Positions 1-47,995 of a stretch of 64,000 nt of DNA are shown one piece after another. Made by a program: the position numbers and the translations under genes. The number at the start of each line of letters is the position of its first letter. Position 1 is the stretch's first letter. The DNA comes from a bacterium (GTDB lineage: Bacteria; Patescibacteriota; Patescibacteriia; JACPHY01). The stretch lies in NCBI GenBank assembly GCA_030647005.1, contig JAUSKG010000021.1, positions 27,105 to 91,104 of the forward strand. The letters are read 5' to 3'. The notes below the pieces were generated by a model that saw nothing but the letters and a program-made list of their open reading frames with translations, had not been told where the DNA came from and ran no database searches.

Positions 1-7
1 GTGCATT

Positions 8-83
8 CGGGCTATAGCTCAGTTGGTAGAGCGCTTGCATGGGGTGCAAGAGGCCGTCGGTTCAAGTCCGGCTAGCCCGACCA
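8..83 (+). tRNA. tRNA-Pro (anticodon GGG), CCA encoded
   Basis: Cloverleaf readable: acceptor cgggcta/tagcccg, D-arm gctcagttggtagagc, anticodon stem cttgc/gcaag with loop atGGGgt, T-arm ggttcaagtccggc; loop identical to E. coli tRNA-Pro(GGG). Confidence 0.9.
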
Positions 84-117
84 AGTTACAACACGAGCGT
101 GTAGCATTTTTTCGTTC

Positions 118-190
118 GTCATTGCGAGGAGTCCCGAGGCAAGCTCGGGATTCCGGCTTGCCTCCATCTCGCAACGTCGGAGTCCGCGCT
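118..190. repeat. Degenerate copy of palindromic 'GTCATTGCGAGG...GGCAATCCCGG' element (family B)
   Basis: tcgtcattgcgaggagtcccgaggcaagctcgggattccgg... matches left arm of the 38704 and 60555 copies; directly downstream of tRNA-Pro. Confidence 0.5.
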
Positions 191-199
191 TCGCGAAGG

Positions 200-355
200 A
201 GGGTAGCTTTGAGCGAAGGAGGAAGTCGAGAAATCTCACTTCCCCCCTTCGTCATTTCGAGCGAGTCCGCGAGTCGAGAAATCTCGTTGAGCAGGAGGAC
301 GTCGCTCGTGCTGTTGGACGAGATCTCTCCACTCGTTCGAGGACTCACTCGGTCG
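200..355. repeat. Family A dispersed repeat cluster (CGTCATTTCGAGCGAGTCCGCGAGTCGAGAAATCTC unit)
   Basis: 36-nt unit present here and, in either orientation, at 36262-36400, 47283-47467 and 47764-47995. Confidence 0.65.
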
Positions 356-468
356 CAATGACGGAGAGGGAGGAGAAGGGGGAAGAGGGGTGTGATGATC
401 CAAAAAGAAGAGACCCGCCAGAGGTCCCCAAGGACATGGCGGGTCAGTTGAAGTGTCGTGCGTGCAGT

Positions 469-750
469 TCACGCCTTGGAGGCGTTCACCGCGGCGATGA
501 TCAGCTCGGCATCTGCGCGCGACGAAGTGCTCGCGACGAGATCGCCAAAGCGATCCAGGACTGCAAAGTCGCCACGACCGAGACCTCGATCACGGAAACC
601 GAGCTCCCATGGACGAGGATGGGCTGTGAAGTAGCCCTTGCGTTCCAGCAAATCGTGTGCTTCTGCGGGCGTCACGTTCCCTTCCGCTTGCATGGCCTCC
701 AGGAGCGGCGGCCTTCGTCTGTCCACGTACGATTCCGGTGCGTCCTGCAT
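469..750 (-). CDS. hypothetical small protein (93 aa)
   Basis: ATG at 750 preceded by strong SD gggaggtg 7 nt upstream on minus strand; compositionally protein-like; overlapping + strand ORFs judged spurious. Confidence 0.5.
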   Translation of the reverse strand: MQDAPESYVDRRRPPLLEAMQAEGNVTPAEAHDLLERKGYFTAHPRPWELGFRDRGLGRGDFAVLDRFGDLVASTSSRADAELIIAAVNASKA

Positions 751-889
751 GGTCCCACCTCCCGATTTCTTACATTTTTCGTGTGTTCCCTGGACTCGCA
801 TCAAGAATAACAGATACGAGCATGAAAGTCAATAGCTGCATTGAGAAGTTGACTATGCGATGGAGAATTCGCTCAGCTCATGCACTCGG

Positions 890-918
890 TTGACACCGCG
901 GTCTGTTTGTGGTATGGT
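890..918 (+). promoter_or_regulatory. sigma70-like promoter (TTGACA-17-TATGGT) upstream of 1002..1859
   Basis: ttgacaccgcggtctgtttgtggtatggt read directly; followed by SD gaaggagg and ATG at 1002. Confidence 0.4.
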
Positions 919-1001
919 GAATAGTGATCTTTGTAAACGGCGGCCGCCTCCTGCGCATGGTGCGTGAGGGTGCGAAAACCAAGACCGAAGGAGGTATTAT
1001 C

Positions 1002-1859
1002 ATGGCGGCATCGCGTTTTGCTGTCGACGGTGATACGTATTGGAAGATCCGTGGAAAGATGTTGGATATTGAGCGACAGGTGCGGCAGAAGGGTGGATGT
1101 CCGCTCAACCCGCGGCAGTTGCTCGGCGCATTGCAGGCGATTGGTGAGGGTCGCTTCGCACAAGATCCCGCCTCCGCCCTCGTCCTCCCCCAGCGCCCCC
1201 CGCTCATCCACGGAATGTTCGCCAATCTGGAAACCCAGATCGCGAACATGCGAAAGTGGAACGAGCGGCGGAGATGGGGATTCACGTCAGCGGACTTTGT
1301 GCTCGGAGACCCGCCCGCATGGCCAGACGACCGTCTCGTCGCCGTAGTGCTGGTACCCTACCTCCCGGACCACAAGGGAGTAACCGGTATCCAGCGCACC
1401 TTCGACGAGCTGTGGGAAGTTACCTCCCGTCGTCAGCCCAATCGGGACCGATGGAGTGAAGTTCGATCCGACCCGCAGCATCTGACGCTGCTGGACGGCA
1501 TTACCCACACCCCCGGCCTCCGCTGGGAGGTCATTGACCTCGGTGCCAACTGGGACAAGCAGAACGGCATTGCTCCCAACACCGTCCGCTCCCCAGCGTC
1601 ATCTCCCCACGCCGGCATCCTCGCCGCCACAGCCCATCATCCCCGGTGGGTGCGGAAGATGGACAGCACCACCGTTCCATTCGTGTGGGCCCCGGGCTAC
1701 CGCTTAGCGGTTCCCGGCCGCGTTCCCCGCGTGCCGATCGTGGGCTGGAGCCGCGACGAGCGGCTGGTGCACCTGCGCGCGCTCTGGGACGACCGCCGGG
1801 TGCCGGACTACGCTGTTCCCCGTTTTCGTTCGCCGTCTCTCGCAGGGAGTGGCACTTAG
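1002..1859 (+). CDS. hypothetical protein (285 aa)
   Basis: ATG with SD aggagg 7 nt upstream; long high-GC ORF; no family recognised. Confidence 0.55.
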   Translation: MAASRFAVDGDTYWKIRGKMLDIERQVRQKGGCPLNPRQLLGALQAIGEGRFAQDPASALVLPQRPPLIHGMFANLETQIANMRKWNERRRWGFTSADFVLGDPPAWPDDRLVAVVLVPYLPDHKGVTGIQRTFDELWEVTSRRQPNRDRWSEVRSDPQHLTLLDGITHTPGLRWEVIDLGANWDKQNGIAPNTVRSPASSPHAGILAATAHHPRWVRKMDSTTVPFVWAPGYRLAVPGRVPRVPIVGWSRDERLVHLRALWDDRRVPDYAVPRFRSPSLAGSGT

Positions 1860-2097
1860 CCCTTGGACTCTCGGGACTCGGAATACCTTGGCTTCTCTGG
1901 CCTTGGTACTTCCGGGTCCCGTTTCTTTTGCTACCATGGTGATGTGGGAGAGTACGCATATACGCTGCTGTCCACGGATAGCAGTCGCGGAAATCCTTTC
2001 GACACCTCGCATGGAGCAGCCAGAGTTCCATCATTGCCCGTGCGTAATGGAAGCGTGCGGAGCGAGGCGGTCGAGCACTCCGTGCGTTCCTTTGGAG

Positions 2098-2145
2098 ACA
2101 GCGGCCGACTCCAATCGCGCCTTCGCGCACTTCGCGTGGTGATCG
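2098..2145 (+). other. Duplicated fragment of rpsG 3' end (encodes ...[12 protein letters not shown] like the true S7 C-terminus at 6298-6343)
   Basis: 41/44 nt identity with 6301-6343 including stop codon; preceding ORF sequence is not S7-like. Confidence 0.6.
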
Positions 2146-2158
2146 CACTCGTTGGCTA

Positions 2159-2956
2159 GTGCCTATGGTCAATCAACAACTGCTTGAGTATATCAAGCAA
2201 TCAATACAACAGGGGGTGAGTCGTGAGCAGATCAAAAGCACGCTTATGGCGAACGGGTGGCAAGCGCAGGACGTTGAAGAAGGATGGAATAACGTTCATG
2301 CTCCCAGCGTGTCGCGTGCGCATTCGGTAGCCCCCATGAGCACATCAAGCAATACACTGAAAGTGATTGTAGGCATTATGACGGGCATCGTTGTTGTAGG
2401 CGGTGGAACGTATGTGGTCAGTCAAACAATTTTTAAGTCAGAAAAAATGTCCGACGTTTCTCCTGTCGTTGCGCAGCAGCTACCAACCGAAACACCTTTC
2501 GCAATACCCATCCCTCCTCCACCATCTGAACCAGCACCAACTCCTCCTCAACCATCTGAACCAATACCCACGCAAGTGACATCGCAAAATCCTGAGGTGG
2601 TCTTTGCTGATGCATTGCGTTCTTGTACAAAGCATCGCATGACATTTGAACACCCCTTTACGGGAGAAATGTTAGAAAAAGAAATTTTGGGATTCATGAA
2701 CGAAACGTGCAATTATACTGAGCAAATGCCGAATGGCGGAAAAATGGAGTGTCAATATTCCGAGAGCGAGAGGATTGCTGTCGCTCAATATTACAGAGAC
2801 GTTGCAATAGCGGAATCTGTTGGTACAAGTTTGCGTGCTGATCTCGGAAGCGGTGAACAGCAAACGACCTATACTATCAATGGCAAGGTGGTTGATAATC
2901 CCCTGCAAGAAGCAATGGATAGCGGTGCTTGCGTGATCTCGGGTTACGAAAGTTAA
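2159..2956 (+). CDS. hypothetical single-pass membrane protein, Pro-rich linker, Cys-containing extracytoplasmic domain; low-GC gene
   Basis: ~45% GC vs ~65% flanks; cytoplasmic N-domain, TM (IVGIMTGIVVVGGG), PPPPSEPAPTPPQPSEP linker; GTG 2159 or ATG 2165. Confidence 0.6.
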   Translation: MPMVNQQLLEYIKQSIQQGVSREQIKSTLMANGWQAQDVEEGWNNVHAPSVSRAHSVAPMSTSSNTLKVIVGIMTGIVVVGGGTYVVSQTIFKSEKMSDVSPVVAQQLPTETPFAIPIPPPPSEPAPTPPQPSEPIPTQVTSQNPEVVFADALRSCTKHRMTFEHPFTGEMLEKEILGFMNETCNYTEQMPNGGKMECQYSESERIAVAQYYRDVAIAESVGTSLRADLGSGEQQTTYTINGKVVDNPLQEAMDSGACVISGYES

Positions 2957-2960
2957 TATC

Positions 2961-3569
2961 TTGCTTATGAGGATTGTGCAAGAGCATCCGTCGGTCATGA
3001 TCCTGAAAGATAGCAATGTCATTGCCTTTGCTGCTGGAACATTTTTTCTTTTGGTCGGCATTATCGTGATTGTTGAACCAGATCTTTTTACAAACCAACC
3101 TCCTTTTTGGTTGGGATTTGTTTTCATGCTTTTTGGTGGCGGTATGGTCGTTGGGGGAAAAATAATTACGGTGTATCTTGATAAATCGGCGAATAAGCTC
3201 ATTTTTGTGCAAAAGGGACTGAGTGGACGTAAGCGCAAGGAGTACGATCTCAGTCAAATAAAAGAAGTAGAATTATCCGTAGCATACAATGCTGCAAGCA
3301 AGAGCAAGGGCGGCGGACATTCTTATCACGTCGCATTTGTATGCAAGAGCGGCGAAATAATCCAGCTCAATCCCGGTCATGCGTCTGTCCGAAGATTCAT
3401 GGGACGACAGATCATTCCAGAAAAAATCCTTGGTGTAAGGATTGCCGCCTTTTTAGGTGTTCCATTTCAAGAAAGACGACCCCCGACCGTGCAGGAGACC
3501 TTATCAGCCGTCACTTCTGCAATACAGAACGTGGCCGAGCAAGAGGTGACACAACGAAAAACGTTGTGA
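2961..3569 (+). CDS. hypothetical membrane protein, two N-terminal TM helices plus possible bacterial PH-like domain; low-GC gene
   Basis: Low GC, tightly linked to 2159..2956 (5-nt gap); hydrophobic segments FAAGTFFLLVGIIVIV and FWLGFVFMLFGGGMVVGG; PH-like call is weak. Confidence 0.55.
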   Translation: MLMRIVQEHPSVMILKDSNVIAFAAGTFFLLVGIIVIVEPDLFTNQPPFWLGFVFMLFGGGMVVGGKIITVYLDKSANKLIFVQKGLSGRKRKEYDLSQIKEVELSVAYNAASKSKGGGHSYHVAFVCKSGEIIQLNPGHASVRRFMGRQIIPEKILGVRIAAFLGVPFQERRPPTVQETLSAVTSAIQNVAEQEVTQRKTL

Positions 3570-3732
3570 TGTTTGATTGACAGCGGCGCGCGGGAAGCTG
3601 GTAGGCATGTCGAGATGTCCTATTGTTTTGCTTCGACATGTTGACGAAAAACGGCGAGCTCGATTACGCTGGAGAGAGGATCGTGCGCTACGGGAAGCGT
3701 AGGCGCGTTTTTCGTTCTTTCACCCGAGACGT

Positions 3733-4323
3733 GTGGAGGATTCCGTGCAAGAGCATGCTGATGGGAAGCGGAAGCGTGTACCGGTACCAATGCGCGTTGG
3801 GAAGATGCTCACCCTCGTGAACGTGACGTACCAGCGAAGCTGGGATGCGGGCGCGGGTGTGTACCAGTCGCGTGCGGTCGTCGTGCTCCACATGGTTGGA
3901 CACGAGGATATGCTCTGTCACGGGATCGGCAGAGCACCTGCGGGGACGATCACCGCCATCGAACTCGCGCTGCGCGATGCGATCAGCAGAGCCAGTGACA
4001 TCGCGGTGCCACCCCCCGAGCTCCTCGCGTTCGAGATTCACGTCGCGTCCGGCAACACCGAGCCGAGTGCTCCGGCGAACGCGACTGCGGAGGTGAGCGT
4101 GGCGGGCTGCAAGCGGCGCGTGCAGATTGACCACCCCGACGGTGCGACCGCTGGCGCACTCCTCCTTTTCGATGTCTACGATCTCCACCTCTTCGAGCGC
4201 TGGAGTACCCTCCTCAAGGGCGCGCACGTCGATCCCCATGAGGTCCTCGAGCGTGTTCGTACGTATCGCAACCGTCCCGTCGCCGGAGATGGGGTGGGGT
4301 TCCCATCCTCCGACCCTCCGTGA
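3733..4323 (+). CDS. hypothetical protein; start uncertain (GTG 3733/3745 with SD ggagga, or ATG 3790)
   Basis: High-GC ORF followed by a clear hairpin terminator; the overlapping minus ORF 3688..4506 is Arg/Ser-rich antisense-like and was rejected. Confidence 0.4.
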   Translation: MEDSVQEHADGKRKRVPVPMRVGKMLTLVNVTYQRSWDAGAGVYQSRAVVVLHMVGHEDMLCHGIGRAPAGTITAIELALRDAISRASDIAVPPPELLAFEIHVASGNTEPSAPANATAEVSVAGCKRRVQIDHPDGATAGALLLFDVYDLHLFERWSTLLKGAHVDPHEVLERVRTYRNRPVAGDGVGFPSSDPP

Positions 4324-4352
4324 TCGCACTCGCGAGCCCCACGAAACGAAAA

Positions 4353-4386
4353 CCGCTCCGATGAACATCGGAGCGGTTCTCTCTTG
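4353..4386. terminator. Bidirectional intrinsic terminator between convergent genes
   Basis: ccgctccgatg-aac-catcggagcgg followed by ttctctctt on + and a T-rich tract on -. Confidence 0.5.
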
Positions 4387-4396
4387 CGCGTTCTTC

Positions 4397-4591
4397 CTAC
4401 GCCTTTGCCTGCGCCTCCGCGAGGTGCTTCGCGCGCGTACGGAGACAGCTCGTGCAGACGCGCGTGCGCACGCCGTCGAGTCGTTTGCGCACGAGGTTGA
4501 TGCCAAACGTTCGTTTCGTCTTGATGTTTGAGTGGCTCACCGTGTGCCCATTCCCGGAACCACGGCGGCAGACCTCGCATCGCTTCGCCAT
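4397..4591 (-). CDS. rpmB: 50S ribosomal protein L28
   Basis: [38 protein letters not shown]...VCTSCLR matches L28 signature (MAKxCxVC ... VCTxCLR). Confidence 0.8.
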
Positions 4592-4675
4592 ACAGGAGGA
4601 GTACCAATATCCAGCTTCCATCTCCAATGGTCCTACGGTATCATACAGGGAAACGTCGTCAAGTCGGACTGCTCT

Positions 4676-5314
4676 ATGCCCATCACCCTTATCTTCAACC
4701 AGCCAGCAGTTGGTCTCGCGTGGGTCGCAGCCATCCTCGTGGCGCTCGCCATCCATGAGTACGCCCACGCGCTCGTGGGATCATGGCTCGGTGACTCCAC
4801 GGCGCGACACGAGGGGCGACTCACGCTCAACCCGCTCGCGCATGTGGACCCCTTTGGGTTCCTCATGCTCCTCCTTGTGGGATTCGGGTGGGGAAAACCC
4901 GTCCCGTTTGATCCGTCGCAGCTGAAGTACCGCACGTGGGGCCCGGCCATCGTTGCGCTCGCCGGCCCCGCGATGAATCTCATCGGGCTCACGACCGCGG
5001 GTATCCTCCTCGGGGTGCTCGATCGCGTCACCGCGCTCCCGCCGAACAACCTCCTCGTGCTCACCCTCGCGTTCGTCTTCCAGATCAACCTCGTCCTCAT
5101 GCTCTTCAACCTTATCCCCATTCCGCCGCTCGATGGGTCAAAGTTGCTCCTCTCCGCGCTCGCGCACCCTCGATACGACCATGCGCGCTTCGTCCTCACG
5201 ACGCGCGGCCCGATCATCCTCCTCGGTATCATTATCCTCGATCGCGCGATGGGTGGTCTCATCTTCGGTCGTCTCTTCCAGGGCGCCATGGAGCGGATCA
5301 TCGGGTTGTTCTAA
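4676..5314 (+). CDS. site-2 protease family (M50) membrane metalloprotease
   Basis: HEYAHAL (HExxH) in TM helix and [10 protein letters not shown] motif; start by first in-frame ATG, possible upstream non-ATG start. Confidence 0.8.
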
Positions 5315-5455
5315 TCGCTACCGCAGGGCGCACCCCCTTGTGGGTGACCACGCTTGACGGAGAAAACGGCTGTTGCTACAGTAGTTCCTGAAGGCATGAG
5401 GCACTGCCCTTTGGCGTGCTTCCTTTCATTTGCGGGTACTCCAGAATCCTGCGGT

Positions 5456-5872
5456 ATGCCGACGACGAACCAACTCCTCCGCTACGGACGGAAGGCAAAA
5501 TCGAAAAAATCCAAGGCACCGGCGATGCAGTACGTGTTCAACTCCCTGCGCCGCCTGCGGACCAACCTCCCGAAGGGGAGCCCGTTCAAGCGGGGGGTCT
5601 GCCTGAAGGTGACGACGATGACGCCAAAGAAGCCCAACTCCGCGATCCGCAAGATCGCGCGTGTCCGGTTGTCGAACGGTCAGGAAGTGACGGCGTACAT
5701 TCCGGGCATCGGCCACAATCTTCAGGAGCACTCCATCGTGCTCATTCGTGGTGGCCGCGTGCGTGACCTTCCGGGTGTACGCTACCACATCGTCCGCGGT
5801 GTCTACGACTCCACCGGTGTCGAGAATCGCAAGAATAGCCGGTCACTGTACGGCGTGAAGAAGAGCACGTGA
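5456..5872 (+). CDS. rpsL: 30S ribosomal protein S12
   Basis: [13 protein letters not shown]... PNSAIRK ... conserved S12 sequence. Confidence 0.95.
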
Positions 5873-5875
5873 TCT

Positions 5876-6343
5876 ATGCGAGGGAAACAAGCACCACGAC
5901 GCAGCATCACTCCGGATCCGAAGTACGGATCGGTGACGCTTGCGAAGTTCACCAACTACATCATGAAGCGCGGCAAGAAGACCGTTGCGCAGGGGATTGT
6001 GTACGCGGCGTTCGAGGACGTCGCGAAGCGGAGCGAACAGGATCCGCTTGACGTGTTCGCGCGCGCGCTCAAGAACGTCGCACCGGCAATGGAGGTGCGC
6101 TCGAAGCGCGTGGGTGGCGCGAACTACCAGGTGCCCTTCCCCGTACGCGGTGATCGCCGGCAGTCGCTCGCGTTTCGCTGGCTCCTCGGAGCCACGCGGC
6201 AGCGGAAGGGGAAGTCCATGGCGGCACGGCTCGCGGATGAGCTCCTCGCCGCATCGCAGGGCGAGGGTGCTGCCGTGAAGAAGCGCCAGGACGTCCAGCG
6301 CATGGCCGACTCCAACCGCGCTTTCGCACACTTCGCGTGGTGA
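5876..6343 (+). CDS. rpsG: 30S ribosomal protein S7
   Basis: [19 protein letters not shown]... ending [13 protein letters not shown]. Confidence 0.95.
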
Positions 6344-6386
6344 TGACATTCGGTGTTCGCTCCTAGCCCCCTCCTCCCCGTCCCCT

Positions 6387-8474
<2,088 letters not shown>

Positions 8475-8537
8475 GTCAAAAGCGAGCGCGCGGGAGACAC
8501 GCACTTGACGGCCCTTATCCACACCGTATTGTAGACC

Positions 8538-8906
8538 ATGTCAGGACCCACCTCTATGGACCCATCCATGTTCCAGCACCTCTTCGCACTCATCGAGCGC
8601 ACGGGCGACCGGTTGGTTGTCGTAGACCCCGCATCGCGGAAGCCCTATGTGGTCATGGGGCTCGCGCAGTATGAGCAGCTCGTTTCCCCACCATCGCCGA
8701 AGCCGGCTTCGGCGTTCCTCGCGAGCCAGCAGAACTCCGCAAACGAGGATATCGCGGTGTGGCGGGCCATGCAGGAACCGGATGTCGTTGCGCCGGAGGA
8801 GGCGGTAGCGAGCATCCCGATTGGCATGATGGGTAGTTTTGTCCCGGAGCCACTCCAAGCGGCGATCCCGGACGATGACCGCTTCTACGTGGAACCCATC
8901 GAGTGA
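8538..8906 (+). CDS. hypothetical small protein between fusA and tuf; N-terminal part faintly Phd/YefM-antitoxin-like
   Basis: ORF in operon gap; no SD; LVVVDPASRKPYVVMGLAQYEQL pattern; weak call. Confidence 0.35.
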   Translation: MSGPTSMDPSMFQHLFALIERTGDRLVVVDPASRKPYVVMGLAQYEQLVSPPSPKPASAFLASQQNSANEDIAVWRAMQEPDVVAPEEAVASIPIGMMGSFVPEPLQAAIPDDDRFYVEPIE

Positions 8907-9107
8907 GGGGGCTTTGGACAGGGTATCGCTTGGGGAAAATCCCTGGACAGTGCCGGTCCTTGCGCGTTTTTTGGGATGTGCTACGATAGTTTTGACACGC
9001 AATTCTTAAAGGTGGAATCGCTTTTTTTATTGCAACTAAGCCAAGAGTCGGACAGTGGTGTCATCAGCGTCATTGCTGCTGCGCCATGAACGTCACCTAT
9101 TCGAAAT

Positions 9108-27317: not shown

Positions 27318-27938
27318 ATGGTTATTACTGATCCGCCATCAAACGAAGGGGTTATGGTTCAGCGTGGTTGGGGATGGGTGCTCGCGTCTAGCGATAACGT
27401 CCCTCACGATCCCAGTGAGCATTGTCCAACACGGGATGTGTTTACGGGTCGGTTAGATCATGCCCGCATTCTTCTCGAGCGAGCACCAAAATTTCAGATG
27501 ATAGCATCGGAGCTCATCGCTGCGGTCGGAGAGATTGGGAACAACACGTTTGATCACAACATTGGACAGTGGCGAGATGTTCCAGGGTGTTGGTTCGGGT
27601 GGATGCTTGGAGATGGACATTGGACAGCGGTGATCGCCGATCGCGGCCAGGGTATTCTTGCAACATTGCGTCGTATTCGGCCGGAGCTCCATGATGATAT
27701 GGAGGCGCTTCGTGTTGCGTTCCGCGAGGTGATTTCTGGACGATCTCCCGAGCAGCGGGGGAATGGATTGAAGTTTGTTGCATCCGTCATCGGGCAACGC
27801 GGGGATCGGCAGCTTGAATTTCATTCTGGAGCAGCACAAGTCGTTCTGACATCTCCTAGAAAAGGACGGCACGAGGAATGGTCTCCATCTGTACGGGTGC
27901 TCCCGGGAACCCTTGCCATCCTTTCGGTTATGGTGTAG
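27318..27938 (+). CDS. minimal GHKL-superfamily ATPase, RsbW/SpoIIAB (anti-sigma serine kinase)-like
   Basis: N-box EIGNNTFDH, G1 VIADRGQGI (DxGxG), G2 GRSPEQRGNGLKFV; gene lies at edge of low-GC island; start ATG 27318 (alt GTG 27285). Confidence 0.7.
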   Translation: MVITDPPSNEGVMVQRGWGWVLASSDNVPHDPSEHCPTRDVFTGRLDHARILLERAPKFQMIASELIAAVGEIGNNTFDHNIGQWRDVPGCWFGWMLGDGHWTAVIADRGQGILATLRRIRPELHDDMEALRVAFREVISGRSPEQRGNGLKFVASVIGQRGDRQLEFHSGAAQVVLTSPRKGRHEEWSPSVRVLPGTLAILSVMV

Positions 27939-27953
27939 TATTTTGGTACAACT

Positions 27954-28244
27954 ATGAGAATTGCATTGAGTAAATTTGGGCCCATGTTGGTCTCCCGTCC
28001 CGCAGGTCGTGATGCCCTGTTGATTGCTTCTGCATACCTTACGCCCGTATCGGAAACCGAGTCGATCGAGATCGATTTTACCGGCGTGCATGTACTCACT
28101 CCCTCATGGGCAGACGAGTTTGTTACCGGACTCCGTAAGAAATACGGAGATCGGCTCGTGTTGCTTCCCTCCGATAATGTTTCCGTAAAGCTTACCCTTG
28201 CAACGATCGGTCAATCTCCGAAAACCGGACCTGACGCGGTTTGA
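27954..28244 (+). CDS. small STAS-like protein, DUF4325-type (96 aa)
   Basis: ...SIEIDFTGVHVLTPSWADEFVTGL... pattern of the STAS-like DUF4325 family (assignment from memory, not searched); 16 nt after the ATPase. Confidence 0.6.
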   Translation: MRIALSKFGPMLVSRPAGRDALLIASAYLTPVSETESIEIDFTGVHVLTPSWADEFVTGLRKKYGDRLVLLPSDNVSVKLTLATIGQSPKTGPDAV

Positions 28245-28254
28245 CACGTTCTGT

Positions 28255-28360
28255 GGAAAAAATCGGACCTGACACGATTACCTCTCACCATCTCGTTTTC
28301 ATAGCCCTCCCACACACGGCTGGGCGTTAGAAAAAAATCGGACCTGACACGATTACCGTT
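28255..28360 (+). repeat. Two direct copies of gaaaaaatcggacctgacacgattacc (GACACGATT family)
   Basis: Exact 27-mer at ~28255 and ~28331. Confidence 0.7.
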
Positions 28361-28389
28361 TGCTCGTCGAGAATTTAAAATAGAAACGT

Positions 28390-28584
28390 ATGCTGGACCT
28401 CAAACGCACTCTACTTGCAAAGGAGTTATTTCTGGCTGCCATTATCTTCTATGCCATGGCATGGTTGATCGGAGGTATTTTTGGAGACGCGCTGAAGCTA
28501 ATAGGGTTCATTGCCCTGGCCATGGCAATTATTGCTGCGATTCGTGAAGTCAGGAGAGAGGCAGCAGACAAATCAAAAAAATAA
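28390..28584 (+). CDS. hypothetical 64-aa protein with two TM helices and charged C-terminus
   Basis: MLDLKRTLLAKELFLAAIIFYAMAWLIGGIF...IGFIALAMAIIAAIREVRREAADKSKK; low-GC island. Confidence 0.45.
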   Translation: MLDLKRTLLAKELFLAAIIFYAMAWLIGGIFGDALKLIGFIALAMAIIAAIREVRREAADKSKK

Positions 28585-28602
28585 GGTAAATATAGATAGG
28601 AT

Positions 28603-28836
28603 AATGGTAGGATAATGGTGTCAGGTCTGATTGTCCGTTAAAAAGCGGACCCGACACGATTACTCTTGGGCGGTGGCGGATGTGACGCCGTGATATGATG
28701 ACCGCATGAAACCGGCACAGAGCAACATCGCTCACCTCGACGGCGCGAACGGAACGGAAGGTGCGAGCGATGGGAAAAAGAATCAGACCTGACATCATCA
28801 TCCTTGCTTTCTTCCGCTTGACACCATTATCCTCCA
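28603..28836. mobile_element. ~230-bp GC-rich insert bounded by inverted repeats (aggataatggtgtcaggtctgatt ... aatcagacctgac ... ttgacaccattatcct)
   Basis: Inverted 13-16-mers read directly; internal segment ~62% GC inside ~35% GC surroundings. Confidence 0.4.
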
Positions 28837-28844
28837 CTAAAAAT

Positions 28845-29417
28845 ATGGATAAACTAGAAAATATTTTTATTGGTTTTAGAAATAGTTCATTTGATGAAAT
28901 AATCAAGTTAAATCTTAACCACACTATTTCAAACAAGGAAAAACTAATTTTTAGAACTATTTTTGAAAATTCTGCAAATTTAATTGCTTCGTTTATCAAA
29001 GAAATAAAAGCAAGTAAGTCAATAGAGGAAAAAGATTTTGACTGGATGATGCTACTTTATGTTTTTGTTTGTGTTCAAGAACTTCATGACATACTAGATC
29101 GGGTAGAGAAAACAGACGATGCTCATATAAAAAATACACTGGATGTTAATAAACAAGATTTGATAAATCATCTTAAGAAAATATTAGGTGGTAAAGATAT
29201 GGGTAGTGTTGTGGATAAAACGTTTAATCACATAGAATCTTCTGATAAGGAATCGGGTAATTACAATGAATTTGTTGTTGGAAGAACTTATGTAATTTTT
29301 AGTATGTTAAAAGAAAATCAAGTTAATATTGAAAATATGTCAAGTGAAAAATTACTACAAATTTCAGAAGAAAATTATAAAAATAGTATAGTAAATTTTG
29401 TAAAGATTTGTGTCTAG
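28845..29417 (+). CDS. hypothetical protein, very low GC (~28%), 190 aa
   Basis: ATG 28845 (track ORF starts 28761); Lys/Asn/Ile-rich; no recognisable domain. Confidence 0.5.
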   Translation: MDKLENIFIGFRNSSFDEIIKLNLNHTISNKEKLIFRTIFENSANLIASFIKEIKASKSIEEKDFDWMMLLYVFVCVQELHDILDRVEKTDDAHIKNTLDVNKQDLINHLKKILGGKDMGSVVDKTFNHIESSDKESGNYNEFVVGRTYVIFSMLKENQVNIENMSSEKLLQISEENYKNSIVNFVKICV

Positions 29418-29526
29418 TAAAGAGAGCAAGGTAGAAAAAGGGAAAAAGGAAAGGGGAGATAAAGAGAGATAAAGTGAAAAAATGGACTTGACCCCTTTCT
29501 TGTCTTTCTTGCATTTGCTGCTTTCT

Positions 29527-29583
29527 TGACACTATAAAATCGGACTTGACACGATTTCCGTGGACATGACACGATTTCCGACA
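29527..29583 (+). repeat. Three tandem GACACGATTTCC copies (GACACGATT family)
   Basis: aaaatcggacttgacacgatttccgtggacatgacacgatttccgacacgatttcc immediately upstream of ATG 29594. Confidence 0.7.
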
Positions 29584-29593
29584 CGATTTCCAT

Positions 29594-29899
29594 ATGTGGG
29601 AGGATCTCGACAAAAAAGAAAAAGGGGAAGTCGTGAATTTGGGACTGGCTATTTTGGTCGGCTTGCTTTTCTTGACATATTTTATTCGGGGCGTGAGAGA
29701 TGCTCCTCATGTAGCTGACTACCGTGAGCAATTCAGTGACTGTATGGAGGGTGCAAAGAATGGTCAGGAGCGCTATTTTTGTAAGGAGCATTTTGGTGAA
29801 CCAATGCTTTGGTTACAATTCAAGGAATGCAAGAAGGACCAAAAAAATAAAGTATGTAAAAAAATATTAAATGAACAGCTAATGGATCTTTACAAATAA
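29594..29899 (+). CDS. hypothetical 101-aa protein, N-terminal TM anchor, Cys-rich ectodomain
   Basis: VVNLGLAILVGLLFLTYFI then CMEGAKNGQERYFCKEHF...KECKKDQKNKVCKK. Confidence 0.5.
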   Translation: MWEDLDKKEKGEVVNLGLAILVGLLFLTYFIRGVRDAPHVADYREQFSDCMEGAKNGQERYFCKEHFGEPMLWLQFKECKKDQKNKVCKKILNEQLMDLYK

Positions 29900-29902
29900 T
29901 TT

Positions 29903-29965
29903 GCAGAAATCGTGTCAATGCAGAAATCGTGCGAAAAACCGTGTGCCAAATCGTGTCAGGTCTGC
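29903..29965 (-). repeat. Three inverted-orientation copies of the GACACGATT motif
   Basis: cagaaatcgtgtcaatgcagaaatcgtgcgaaaaaccgtgtgccaaatcgtgtcaggtctg. Confidence 0.65.
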
Positions 29966-29977
29966 TCTGTTAATAAA

Positions 29978-30110
29978 GGGGTCAAGTCCATTTCTTCGAT
30001 GATGACGGCTATAGGGAGCACGAGGTGATCGAGTGCACAGATAAAGGGGTCAAGTCCATTTATTTGACGATGACGGCTATAGGGAGCACGAGGTGATCGA
30101 GTTTGGCCCA
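29978..30110 (+). repeat. Two tandem ~68-bp units (ataaaggggtcaagtccattt...gatgacggctatagggagcacgaggtgatcgagt) plus partial third
   Basis: Near-identical units at 29978-30045 and 30046-30113. Confidence 0.7.
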
Positions 30111-30197
30111 TTTCCCTTTCATAGAGGGAATACGAAGTGATCCAGAGCACTGCTTGGGGGGGGGTAGAGAAGGGTTGATCGAACGCGGCGTGCCGTC

Positions 30198-30659
30198 TCA
30201 TTGCATCGAGCAGAGGGTTGAGAAATCCGAGACCGAGAGCTCCGGGATTGGCGATGTCGTAATGGCAGCGCAATGACGCTTGTCCCTCGTGAAGCGTGCG
30301 AGGTAGAAGGAGCAGCTCCCGCGCTCGCCGTCGTTTTGTTGCTGTGCACACGTTTGCACGGCGTTGGCAGCGTCATTGAGGTCGCAGCGTTCCTCGATAT
30401 CCGCTGGACATGGTGCGTTGACGCAGACAAGTTGGTGTTCCACAGCGCTGTAGGAGCCGTTGAGTTTTCGACACCACTCCTCGGTGCGGCCGGTGACCTC
30501 GTACTGTCGCGCTGCCTGGGCAGGATCATCTGGCCATGCGGCATCATATGCCGCTCGACGTTGATCATCCGCTGCACGCCGCGCAACTGCCATGACAACG
30601 ATCGCGACAACAAGCGCAGCAATGGCGAGGAGTGCGATAGTTTGGTTGCGACGCGACAT
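30198..30659 (-). CDS. hypothetical secreted/membrane-anchored Cys-rich protein (153 aa)
   Basis: N-terminal TM IALLAIAALVVAIVVMAV; 10 Cys; overlapping + ORFs judged spurious. Confidence 0.55.
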   Translation of the reverse strand: MSRRNQTIALLAIAALVVAIVVMAVARRAADDQRRAAYDAAWPDDPAQAARQYEVTGRTEEWCRKLNGSYSAVEHQLVCVNAPCPADIEERCDLNDAANAVQTCAQQQNDGERGSCSFYLARFTRDKRHCAAITTSPIPELSVSDFSTLCSMQ

Positions 30660-30732
30660 ACGAGCTGGTGAGGGCCGATGCTTGAGTTTAGTTTCTTATC
30701 CCGTTCAGTATAGCACGAAAATCGAAGGTGGA

Positions 30733-30822
30733 TAAAGGGGTCAAGTCCATTTCTTTGACGATGGCGGCTATAGGGAGCACGAGGTGATCCAGTGAAAAAT
30801 GGACTTGACCCCTTTCTCCTTT
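30733..30822. mobile_element. MITE-like ~90-bp element with perfect 19-bp terminal inverted repeats (aaaggggtcaagtccattt / aaatggacttgacccctttc)
   Basis: Same internal sequence as the 29978 tandem units; solo right-end copies at ~29468-29496 and ~30823-30850. Confidence 0.6.
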
Positions 30823-47282: not shown

Positions 47283-47467
47283 GAGGGGGGGTGTTGAGGG
47301 GGATGAGATTTCTCGACTCGCGGACTCGCTCGAAATGACGAGGGAGGATAGGACTCGCTCGAAATGACGAAGGAAGGTGGAACCCGCTCGAAATGACGAA
47401 GGAAGTTTGTTCCACCTCATTTACCGTCATCTCGACCAAGCGAGTCCTCGAGCGCGTGGAGAGATCT
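47283..47467. repeat. Family A repeat block incl. 3 tandem ~29-bp units (cgctcgaaatgacgaaggaag) and 70-nt direct repeat shared with 47868-47940
   Basis: Read directly; repeat overlaps 3' end of GIY-YIG gene. Confidence 0.7.
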
Positions 47468-47469
47468 CG

Positions 47470-47763
47470 TCAGCACAGTTCGGGGTACAAGTCGCGCAAT
47501 GCGGGGTTCGTGGCTCTGATGAGTTCCAGCTTCTTAATCCTGCTCCAGCGTTTGAGCTGCTTCTCGCGCTCGATAGCATCCATGGCGGTCGCGTACTGCT
47601 CGTAGTAGATGAGGACAGTGCAGTGGTATCGCTCGGTAAACCCTCTGACAAATTTTTCCTGATGCTCCCAAACGCGGCGGATGAGGTTGTTGGTGATACC
47701 GATGTAGAGGACGGTGCGTTTGACGTTCGTGAGAATGTAGACGTAGTAGTGGCGCTCGTCCAT
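47470..47763 (-). CDS. GIY-YIG domain nuclease, small stand-alone type (97 aa)
   Basis: YYVYILTNVKRTVLYIGITNNLIRRVWEH ... ERE ... KKLELI (GIY-YIG/URI signature). Confidence 0.85.
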   Translation of the reverse strand: MDERHYYVYILTNVKRTVLYIGITNNLIRRVWEHQEKFVRGFTERYHCTVLIYYEQYATAMDAIEREKQLKRWSRIKKLELIRATNPALRDLYPELC

Positions 47764-47995
47764 AGCGTGAGATCTCTCGACTTCGCTCCGCTCCGCTCGA
47801 GATGACGGGGGGGCAGGAAGGGATCGCTCGAGATGACGAGAGTGGGATTGCTTTGTGTTTCATTCCTCGTCATCTCGACCAAGCGAGTCCTCGAGCGCGT
47901 GGAGAGATCTCGTCAGCACAGTTCGGGGCGCATTTCGCGTAGCGCGACAAGATTTCTCCGCTCGCGGACTCGGTCGAAATGACGGAGGAGGAGAG
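47764..47995. repeat. Family A repeat block upstream of GIY-YIG; contains second copy of 70-nt direct repeat incl. a remnant GIY-YIG 3' end (…PELC*)
   Basis: cgtcatctcgaccaagcgagtcctcgagcgcgtggagagatctcgtcagcacagttcgggg repeated at 47425 and 47868. Confidence 0.7.

Follow-up and report, generated by a model that had tools for sequence, protein, structure and literature searches.

An orphan copy of the rpsG 3' end beside an acquired and truncated casA-casB cassette in an Uhrbacteria genome

The window analysed here (the whole stretch of 64,000 nt, numbered from its first letter) opens with a tRNA-Pro(GGG) gene (8..83, plus strand; ARAGORN, 66 bits in Rfam), which is the conserved left anchor of a variable region and the only credible Rfam match within positions 1-9000. 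Directly 3' of the tRNA gene lie dispersed, MITE-like repeat units (84..364), of which inverted and direct copies recur at 47305-47991. Two hypothetical genes follow. The first, orf111 (469..804, minus strand), was taken from the ORF list and has a host-like GC3 of 0.66, no family match and a promoter-like site at 832-804. The second, orf286 (NCBI Q7S96_02340; 1002..1859, plus strand), represents a family common in Uhrbacteria (111 homologues; GC3 0.74), and a 121-kb contig of an NCBI MAG encodes a 100% match to its product. A non-coding spacer (1860..2102), without similarity to rpsG or to any of the loci compared, leads to the segment studied here. On the far side a native terminator (3688..3717, plus strand; GGCGCGTTTTTCGTTC, conserved in the relative L169) is found just upstream of orf196 (Q7S96_02355; 3745..4323, plus strand), a syntenic Uhrbacteria gene that is the right anchor of the variable region and has homologues next to rpmB in the relatives L003 (34%), L002 and L169 (45%). 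Then come rpmB (L28; 4397..4591, minus strand; PF00830) and, all on the plus strand, a gene for an M50-family peptidase (4676..5314; PF02163) that is conserved upstream of rpsL, rpsL itself (S12; 5456..5872; PF00164), rpsG (S7; 5876..6343; PF00177, 198 bits) and fusA (EF-G; 6387..8474; 64-86% identity to relatives in tblastn).

The interior of the variable region contains two linked plus-strand genes, here called casA (2165..2956) and casB (2967..3569). An earlier note on this DNA had started them at GTG 2159 and TTG 2961; the alignment of homologues moves the starts to ATG 2165 and ATG 2967. The low GC content that it had pointed out is evident, with 40-46% GC over positions 2400-3450 versus about 62% in the flanks, and with a GC3 of 0.43 in casA (GC 0.47) and 0.44 in casB (GC 0.45) versus 0.74-0.85 in host genes. 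Its description of both products as membrane proteins is reasonable as well. CasA is composed of a conserved N-terminal three-helix domain, one transmembrane segment, a Pro-rich linker and a Cys-containing C-terminal domain. Its hydrophobic segment, at about residues 65-85, was read from the sequence, and a weak, sub-threshold match to the SoxE_N anchor was found in Pfam; outside residues 1-45 the single-sequence AF2 model lacks confidence and is too poor for a fold search. In the structure model of CasB two transmembrane helices (residues 18-36 and 47-63) are inserted in a PH-like beta-sandwich, which indicates an EROS-like PH fold with two transmembrane helices, and the protein carries a conserved C-terminal motif, PFQERRPPTV.

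Homologues of CasA at 57-68% identity were found in five other loci, and CasB is 61-68% identical to its counterparts in four of these. Pfam gave no gathering-level match for CasA, CasB or the products of orf286, orf196 and orf111, and NCBIfam only weak, far sub-threshold low-complexity matches, for CasA. A phage origin of the cassette was rejected, as the viral contigs searched contain no relatives of CasB and no PHROG family matched; assignment to a defence system was given up too, PADLOC having returned nothing usable.

The genes around the cassette keep the order that is ancestral in the clade. The relatives L002 and L003 share with the window the succession tRNA-Pro(GGG), orf196 homologue, rpmB (minus strand), M50 peptidase, rpsL, rpsG and fusA. 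Among the 60 Patescibacteria loci with enough upstream sequence to be counted, 48 have the M50 peptidase gene ahead of rpsL on its strand, and 43 of these also have rpmB on the minus strand. Since this order is ancestral, the absence of rpoBC upstream of rpsL, which the earlier note had thought the event might explain, has nothing to do with the event. What does vary is the interval between the anchors: tRNA-Pro and orf196 are 100-190 nt apart in L003 and L002 but 3.65 kb apart in the window, and L169 has yet another neighbour upstream of its orf196 homologue. Around tRNA-Pro(GGG) and rpmB the surroundings of the str operon are thus a hot spot for accessory genes. The arrangement seen here is not common to the relatives; casA and casB had no match in 80 of their rpsG loci, and both the rpsG fragment described below and the cassette are missing at the corresponding locus. 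Exact-protein look-ups with CasB, Orf196, the M50 peptidase, EF-G and Orf286 returned nothing or only one Logan contig, and orf196 had a single non-self homologue, on a 1.4-kb contig. The nearest relatives with usable flanks in the collections searched reach 77-83% S7 identity, too distant for the order of events to be reconstructed.

At the left edge of the cassette lies an orphan duplicate of the rpsG 3' end (2103..2154, plus strand), consisting of the last 13 codons, the stop codon and about 12 nt of flank. The repeat search of the window paired it with the authentic segment (6304..6355, plus strand) as a direct repeat of 52 nt with 87% identity (45/52) and a spacing of 4201, the two stop codons being at 2140-2142 and 6341-6343. 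A match of 41/44 nt had been reported before at 2098-2145 and 6298-6343; the repeat itself holds, these positions are a few bases off, and the 44-mer corresponds to 2103-2146 and 6304-6347. Through the stop codon 37 of 40 positions are identical. The three differences all fall at synonymous third positions (AAT/AAC, GCC/GCT, GCG/GCA), with no change at any of the 26 first and second codon positions. Past the stop codon 8 of 12 positions are identical and 4 differ, which brings the differences between the copies to seven in total; the longest exact run common to both is 16 nt. To the left of 2103 the identity to rpsG in the register of the repeat is at background level, as it is beyond 2154, and the 5' breakpoint, at 2102/2103, is abrupt. 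The similarity is statistically significant: self-blastn of the window scored the repeat at 58 bits (E=1.4e-8), whereas the best direct repeat in 100 Markov-simulated 64-kb windows had a mean of 32.6 and a maximum of 40.1 bits.

The tail copy is a non-coding orphan fragment, neither an rpsG pseudogene ORF nor a functional small ORF, since GC1/2/3 over 1849-2142 is flat (0.56/0.59/0.61) and without a coding signature, the Logan gene caller predicts no gene there, and the flanking locus tags, Q7S96_02340 and Q7S96_02355, run consecutively and would leave room for the two cassette genes only. Nor does it form a stable RNA fold (z=+0.81). It ends 22 nt upstream of casA, within non-coding DNA and exactly at the left edge of the acquired DNA, and the earlier suspicion of a recombination scar is thereby borne out. 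The junction 20-mers are GTGGTGATCGCACTCGTTGG and TGGCTAGTGCCTATGGTCAATC. A 13-mer in the fragment (GTGATCGCACTCG; 2139..2151, plus strand) is identical to the stop-codon flank of orf196 (4320-4332); its significance is uncertain, with 0.28 matches expected at one mismatch or fewer and an identical 13-mer twin for about 1.3% of the window positions. The motif TGAT..CA.TCG occurs at three stop codons (2140, 4321 and 6341). An arrival of the fragment together with the cassette, considered below, leaves the shared 13-mer unexplained.

The structure is also present in an independent assembly. A Logan contig (L081, from SRR13727527) is 100% identical to positions 1347-6301 of the window and agrees base for base across the tail copy and both cassette junctions; it stops at 6301, 2 nt before the authentic copy. 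Assemblers use k-mers longer than 16 nt. As the contig spans the junctions and the longest shared exact run is only 16 nt, the structure is no assembly join, a possibility that the earlier note had wanted checked at read level.

The cassette belongs to an uncharacterised module of low-GC Patescibacteria, whose canonical form was defined in this analysis as an XRE-type HTH gene followed by casA and casB, with long perfect inverted repeats on either side. The adjacent casA and casB orthologues by which the module is recognised are present in the window. In eight other loci the HTH gene is found upstream of casA, and in three the inverted repeats were seen, perfect over at least 43-108 nt. The 3' element of the module, GC-rich and about 200 nt after casB, has an inverted copy upstream and no credible match in Rfam. 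In the window, tblastn with two HTH proteins against positions 1-4000 revealed neither the gene nor a remnant of it. The DNA homology to other modules begins about 20 nt before the casA ATG and ends 23 nt after the casB stop, where alignment and a blast with the element identify the last remnant of the 3' element (3570..3592, plus strand; ...GCGGCGCGC); blast finds no copy of the element elsewhere in the window, and the inverted repeats are absent. The missing HTH gene, the ends of homology close to the edges of casA and casB and the missing repeats together show that the cassette is a truncated copy of the module, which has lost its HTH gene and both inverted repeats.

In 9 of the 17 distinct informative loci (those with at least 400 nt of upstream sequence) a co-oriented tRNA gene lies within 400 nt upstream of the module, with no other gene block in between. 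The cassette in the window is co-oriented with tRNA-Pro(GGG) too but 2,081 nt away from it, beyond that distance. The tRNA genes adjoined by homologous modules are of many different kinds, and one module adjoins a probable tmRNA gene (a weak 3'-end match). One homologous locus (L105) has casB directly after the same tRNA-Pro(GGG), beside rpmB-M50-rpsL-rpsG-fusA. In another (L121) a 27-28-nt fragment of a tRNA-Phe 3' end lies 27 nt upstream of casB; this is the only cassette locus with a tRNA-derived att repeat beyond the module, and a low-threshold Rfam scan detected no tRNA fragments.

The gap in GC3, the absence of the cassette from the 80 rpsG loci of relatives and the position of its homologues in unrelated contexts of genomes with 31-48% GC mark it as foreign DNA that this high-GC Uhrbacteria genome acquired horizontally from low-GC relatives. 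For the 52-nt element we tentatively favour, while giving it somewhat less than even chances, the reading that it is a non-functional junction scar of illegitimate recombination, the tail having been co-transferred with the cassette from a close high-GC strain. The donor would be a closely related strain with casA-casB directly behind rpsG, so that the tail would be the rpsG allele of the donor and would have entered together with the cassette on one incoming piece of DNA. Recombination that was illegitimate and not site-specific would then have installed the truncated casA-casB downstream of tRNA-Pro(GGG), in the variable spacer that separates orf286 from orf196.

The synonymous-only differences suggest that the fragment comes from the rpsG allele of a sister strain. 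By our multinomial estimate the whole pattern of differences has p of about 0.03 if the copy was made locally and then decayed neutrally, an argument based on only seven differences. Two further observations count for co-transfer. One is the parallel anatomy in L121, with its tRNA-Phe fragment. The other is the rpsG-fusA spacer, which in relatives is a recurrent home of accessory envelope-protein genes; it measures 700-925 nt in six of them and 5 kb in a seventh (L063). As for casA and casB themselves, neither lies directly behind rpsG in any of the 80 rpsG loci or 87 cassette loci sampled, which counts against co-transfer. Since the module's own HTH-promoter region is missing, casA and casB are probably expressed by read-through from the candidate orf286 promoter; the promoter scan offers no other candidate driver than the promoter-like site at 890-918.

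A serious rival, which we consider somewhat less likely, is that the tail is a locally templated filler patch. When illegitimate joining installed or truncated the cassette, a short stretch of single-stranded DNA copied from the 3' end of the resident rpsG, which lies 4.2 kb off on the same strand, would have been built in. SPDIR (short-patch double illegitimate recombination) or replication template switching may have produced the patch, with a second switch to the orf196 stop flank via the shared GTGAT. SPDIR has been documented experimentally in Acinetobacter baylyi as rare microindels, and those templated by intragenomic single-stranded DNA range from 3 to about 100 bp (bioRxiv 10.1101/2023.11.22.568220), a range that accommodates the 40-52 nt of the patch. 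A local template is further in line with the abrupt 5' breakpoint and with the fact that the copy is nearest to the resident gene, at 37/40, the rpsG genes of relatives reaching at most 34/40. The copy also looks chimeric, in that ...GCGTGGTGAT matches rpsG and the 13-mer matches the flank of orf196, although a 13-mer twin of such frequency could be due to chance. Against local copying speaks the restriction of the coding differences to synonymous positions, which is unexpected under neutral decay (p about 0.03-0.07, our estimate from the counts of differences), and the similarity beyond the stop codon suggests that the flank is rpsG-derived as well.

It is improbable that the tail is what remains of a larger duplication of the str region, for instance a tandem one ending at the rpsG stop, of which all but 52 nt was later deleted. 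Two direct repeats on one strand, 4201 nt apart, would fit such an origin, and the motif shared by the three stop codons may have provided microhomology. However, blastn and tblastx of positions 1860-2165 match rpsG in the tail only, and nothing of rpsG, rpsL, the M50 peptidase gene or rpmB can be traced left of 2103 at the DNA or translated level. The model needs two large events with a breakpoint that coincides with the edge of the cassette, and it does not predict a synonymous-only pattern. Nothing else of the str region is duplicated, and the idea that this region had been rearranged is herewith corrected. The other earlier suggestion, that the cassette inserted through homology to the rpsG terminus, does not hold at this site either, the cassette being 2.7 kb upstream of rpsG in the orf286-orf196 spacer. 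Integration at rpsG by homology and duplication of the str region were both rejected on this evidence.

Equally doubtful, in our estimation, is a more general proposal, according to which the module family may be moved by a hitherto undescribed mechanism that inserts it immediately 3' of highly expressed conserved genes (tRNA, tmRNA, rpsG) and takes along a short copy of the 3' end of the previous target on relocation. The rpsG tail and the tRNA-Phe tail in L121 would then be fossils of earlier residences, and the inverted repeats would be determinants of mobility or inversion, with a recombinase acting in trans. If 3'-end fragments beside the module prove systematic they would point to such a mechanism; at present they are two anecdotes.

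There is very little to commend the view that a site-specific integrative element targeting the rpsG 3' end, in the way of tRNA and tmRNA islands, left the two copies as its attL and attR. It would agree with a direct repeat of a gene's 3' end, with the strong tendency of the cassette family to lie 3' of tRNA and tmRNA genes, and with the tRNA 3'-end duplicate in L121. The gene content between the repeats effectively refutes it, however, as the interval 2155-6303 contains the syntenic orf196, rpmB, the M50 peptidase gene, rpsL and the body of rpsG. Moreover, no ORF tested in 469-5314 has an integrase or recombinase domain (Pfam, PHROGs, NCBIfam, PADLOC), the fragment lies upstream and not downstream of the intact gene, and at the other cassette loci no repeat of the tRNA 3' end occurs beyond the module. 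Chance similarity or an assembly artefact is scarcely credible and was rejected: the repeat is short and GC-rich and the Logan contig ends just before the authentic copy, but no simulated window came near its score, two assemblies concur across the tail and both junctions, the longest shared run is only 16 nt, and copies that differ at seven positions are no collapsed repeat.

Co-transfer with the cassette thus remains our tentative preference for the tail. The finding delimits and dates a horizontal acquisition in a genome of the Candidate Phyla Radiation. Its by-product is perhaps of more use: the cassette represents a three-gene module without annotation that occurs across the low-GC Patescibacteria, bounded by inverted repeats and usually next to a tRNA gene.

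The model of CasB resembles EROS/CYBC1, and PH-like domains generally, in its predicted PH-like sandwich with two inserted transmembrane helices. At the sequence level there is no relationship, with 15% identity to EROS/CYBC1, no Pfam family and only noise at E>0.1 in a profile search of the PDB. Unlike EROS/CYBC1, CasB is bacterial and possesses, besides the PFQERRPPTV motif, an additional conserved helix at its C-terminus.

The locus as a whole is similar to tRNA-proximal genomic islets in its sharp shift of GC and GC3, its absence from the locus of relatives and its position downstream of a co-oriented tRNA-Pro(GGG). It differs from them in having no integrase and no tRNA-derived att repeat and in the 2 kb between cassette and tRNA; the only repeat here is a fragment of a protein-coding gene 4.2 kb away. 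With the att duplications made by integrative elements it shares a direct repeat made up of the 3' end of a gene that is conserved and highly expressed, whereas the interval consists of core syntenic DNA including the target gene, a recombinase is absent and the fragment is upstream. SPDIR is not documented as a scar of the present kind, beside an acquired cassette in Patescibacteria, and the junctions of homology-facilitated illegitimate recombination differ in that no homologous anchor is demonstrable here. With the junctions of both processes the tail nevertheless has in common that an ectopic patch of 40-52 nt, from the same genome or a close relative, is found where unrelated sequences meet, possibly with GTGAT as microhomology.

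Positions 2103-2154 of the window (the tail) repeat 6304-6355, i.e. the last 13 codons of the authentic rpsG (5876-6343; Pfam Ribosomal_S7, 198 bits), the TGA and ~12 nt of 3' flank, with 45 identities over 52 nt. A direct-repeat search of the first 9 kb returned this pair as the sole outstanding one. In a self-comparison of the 64-kb window it scored 58 bits (E=1.4e-8), whereas the best direct repeat in 100 simulated windows of the same dinucleotide content averaged 32.6 bits and never exceeded 40.1. The rpsG-tail duplicate described in the earlier note is thus real, and the 41/44 match reported there corresponds to 2103-2146 versus 6304-6347. Up to and including the stop codon 37 of the 40 positions are identical, each of the three coding differences being a synonymous third position; beyond the stop 8 of 12 positions match, and left of 2103, aligned in the repeat register, identity to rpsG is only at background level. 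The ORF that holds the tail (1849-2142) has a flat codon-position GC and received no call from the Logan gene caller, and the NCBI record numbers its locus tags consecutively here, without space for it. Neither a notable RNA fold nor an Rfam match was obtained for the tail region.

Logan contig L081, assembled independently from run SRR13727527, matches window positions 1347-6301 without a difference and spans the tail and both cassette ends. Since it agrees with the window there, and since the longest exact run common to the two copies is 16 nt, an assembly join is ruled out as the origin of the duplicate. The contig ends at 6301, 2 nt before the authentic copy, even though no more than those 16 nt are exactly alike in the copies; the break there may be a coincidence or due to polymorphism of the rpsG tail among strains.

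Directly right of the tail lie the membrane-protein genes casA (2165-2956, plus strand) and casB (ATG at 2967, to 3569, plus strand). GC content is 40-46% over 2400-3450 against ~62% on either side, and GC3 is 0.43 in casA and 0.44 in casB against 0.74-0.85 in orf286, orf196, rpmB, the M50 peptidase gene, rpsL, rpsG and fusA, which bears out the composition shift noted earlier. Its S7 relatives (best identity 77-83%) assign the window to Candidatus Uhrbacteria or close Patescibacteria. Of the genomes with usable flanks, the closest two (L002 and L003) share the order tRNA-Pro(GGG), orf196 homologue, rpmB (minus strand), M50, rpsL, rpsG, fusA. The gap between tRNA-Pro(GGG) and orf196 is 100-190 nt in these genomes versus 3.65 kb in the window, where tRNA-Pro(GGG) (8-83) is followed by dispersed repeat units (84-364), orf111 (469-804, minus strand), orf286 (1002-1859, plus strand), a non-coding spacer of 243 nt, the tail, casA and casB, and then orf196 (3745-4323, plus strand). 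At the orthologous locus, neither a copy of the tail nor the cassette is present in any relative examined. The terminator GGCGCGTTTTTCGTTC just before orf196 is common to the relative L169, and is therefore native and outside the cassette.

An M50 gene lies upstream of rpsL on the same strand in 48 of the 60 related loci whose sequence reaches at least 1.5 kb beyond rpsL on that side, and in 43 of the 48 it is preceded by rpmB on the opposite strand. That rpoBC does not precede rpsL is therefore the ancestral state of the clade, and not a consequence of the event as had been suggested. Likewise, by the gene order shared with L002 and L003 the str region is intact, and its rearrangement is not supported. 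Insertion guided by homology to the rpsG terminus is not supported either, as the cassette lies in the spacer between orf286 and orf196. Of the earlier interpretation, the label "recombination scar" stands, without its two proposed causes.

The casB gene has 66 homologues (37-68% identity), all unannotated, the single source-named match being a Patescibacteria MAG. In longer contigs the full unit consists of an XRE-type HTH gene (67-68 aa), a casA-like gene (248-312 aa) and casB; in a subset of loci casB occurs without partners. In L082, L087, L089, L093, L094, L097, L098 and L101, casB is followed by a conserved, GC-rich and non-coding element of ~200 nt. Perfect inverted copies of it precede the HTH gene over at least 71 nt in L089 (326-396/2152-2222), at least 43 nt in L094 (1-43/1951-1993) and at least 108 nt in L099 (1-108/1904-2011), these three contigs breaking inside the arms. 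The inverted repeats suggest a mobile cassette or an invertible segment. Host genomes have a GC content of 31-48%, and the module genes a GC3 of 0.28-0.34. The module was not found in a viral contig collection, and its proteins matched no PHROGs or PADLOC family, nor any Pfam or NCBIfam family at curated threshold. CasA starts with a three-helix domain that is modelled confidently, followed by a single hydrophobic segment, a linker rich in Pro and a C-terminal domain containing Cys, of which two variants occur; CasB is predicted to have two TM helices and a PH fold like that of EROS. As a working guess, the module may be a repressor-controlled accessory envelope module.

The window's casA-casB is a stump of this module. 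DNA homology to other modules begins ~20 nt before the casA ATG and stops at GCGGCGCGC (3584-3592), 23 nt past the casB stop, where the others run on into the 3' GC-rich element. Elsewhere in the window there is no copy of that element, nor any HTH gene or remnant. With the HTH gene gone and the homology edge at casA, the tail marks the very point at which the module lost its left part (inverted repeat and HTH gene). The only promoter-like site upstream is that of orf286 (890-918), so casA-casB, if expressed, would probably be read through from this putative promoter.

A co-oriented tRNA ends within 400 nt before the first module gene in 9 of the 17 distinct loci whose upstream sequence extends to at least 400 nt (L082, L085, L087, L102, L105, L108, L109, L119 and L121; tRNAs Arg/Pro, Ile, Ser, Thr, Pro(GGG), Val, Arg, Gly and Phe). 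This is far commoner than chance, roughly 1% by our rough estimate from tRNA density in a ~1-Mb genome. In L094 the module abuts the 3' end of what is probably a tmRNA (a weak match to Rfam: 14.7 bits, E=0.01, gathering score 47). In L105 casB directly follows the same tRNA-Pro(GGG), beside rpmB, M50, rpsL, rpsG and fusA. The layout of the window, with an rpsG tail ahead of casA, recurs in L121 with a tRNA: there the 3' end of tRNA-Phe is duplicated over 27-28 nt (924-951), 85 nt downstream of the genuine tRNA and 27 nt upstream of where casB starts. A 68-nt direct repeat lies between tRNA-Gly and casB in L119.

The tail agrees better with the resident rpsG (37/40) than with that of any relative (34/40 or fewer), and its source was therefore this lineage. 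Its differences (three synonymous, 0/26 at first and second positions, 4/12 after the stop) look like those between two functional alleles. We favour co-transfer of the tail with the cassette. The donor would have been a close high-GC sister strain with casA-casB directly behind rpsG; a fragment reaching from inside the donor rpsG to just after casB would have inserted illegitimately between orf286 and orf196. That arrangement was seen in no sampled genome, which counts against co-transfer. Circumstantial support comes from the L121 parallel and from the rpsG-fusA spacer of relatives, where several Patescibacteria have a second hot spot for accessory genes within the str operon. It holds lineage-specific lipoprotein or membrane-protein genes of 150-257 aa in L016, L018, L021, L035, L057 and L074, over 700-925 nt (e.g. 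L016 5980-6864, L018 10463-11386, L021 6687-7389), and in L063 it is enlarged by 5 kb.

The main rival is that the tail is a locally templated filler patch. Its size fits the ectopic patches of 3 to about 100 bp left by short-patch double illegitimate recombination (bioRxiv 10.1101/2023.11.22.568220). However, neutral decay of a local copy should have altered first and second positions too, and the observed pattern would then have a probability of ~0.03 by our multinomial estimate from only seven differences. The 13-mer GTGATCGCACTCG across the tail stop is identical to the orf196 stop flank (4320-4332) and overlaps the rpsG-derived part of the tail in GTGAT. This could be a template-switch signature, or a coincidence, since at ~1.3% of window positions the 13-mer recurs exactly elsewhere in the window. 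The pattern TGAT[CG][GA]CA[CT]TCG starts at a stop codon at each of its three sites in the window (tail, 2140-2151; orf196, 4321-4332; rpsG, 6341-6352) against 0.15 expected, a circular test as the pattern was derived from the same sites. A more speculative reading, of low probability, is that the module takes along the 3' end of the gene it last targeted when it relocates. A larger str duplication followed by deletion fits poorly with the background identity left of 2103. An att-site origin fits poorly too, there being no recombinase domain among the ORFs tested in 1-5314 and the repeats bracketing core genes. An artefact or chance match fits poorly with the agreement of L081 across the junctions and a score beyond all simulations.

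The units at 84-364, just 3' of tRNA-Pro (e.g. GTCGAGAAATCTC, twice), recur inverted at 47305-47341 (37 nt, 100%), 47424-47471 and 47868-47991, and look like a dispersed family of MITE-like repeats; in addition, 47425-47485 recurs without mismatch as a 61-nt direct repeat at 47868-47928. A second low-GC island (~27900-30800; 35-45% against ~63%) contains several AT-rich ORFs and three copies of a ~60-nt repeat (29973-30035, 30040-30102 and 30731-30794), and no gene-tail duplicate of the rpsG kind.

Finally, the cassette family is uncharacterised and mildly interesting for its perfect flanking inverted repeats, tRNA adjacency and EROS-like PH fold. Differing from integrase-type islands in that it has no recombinase and its repeats enclose core genes, the locus resembles an ordinary islet acquired by horizontal transfer at a hot spot near a tRNA gene, and bears a short scar of illegitimate recombination on one of its edges.
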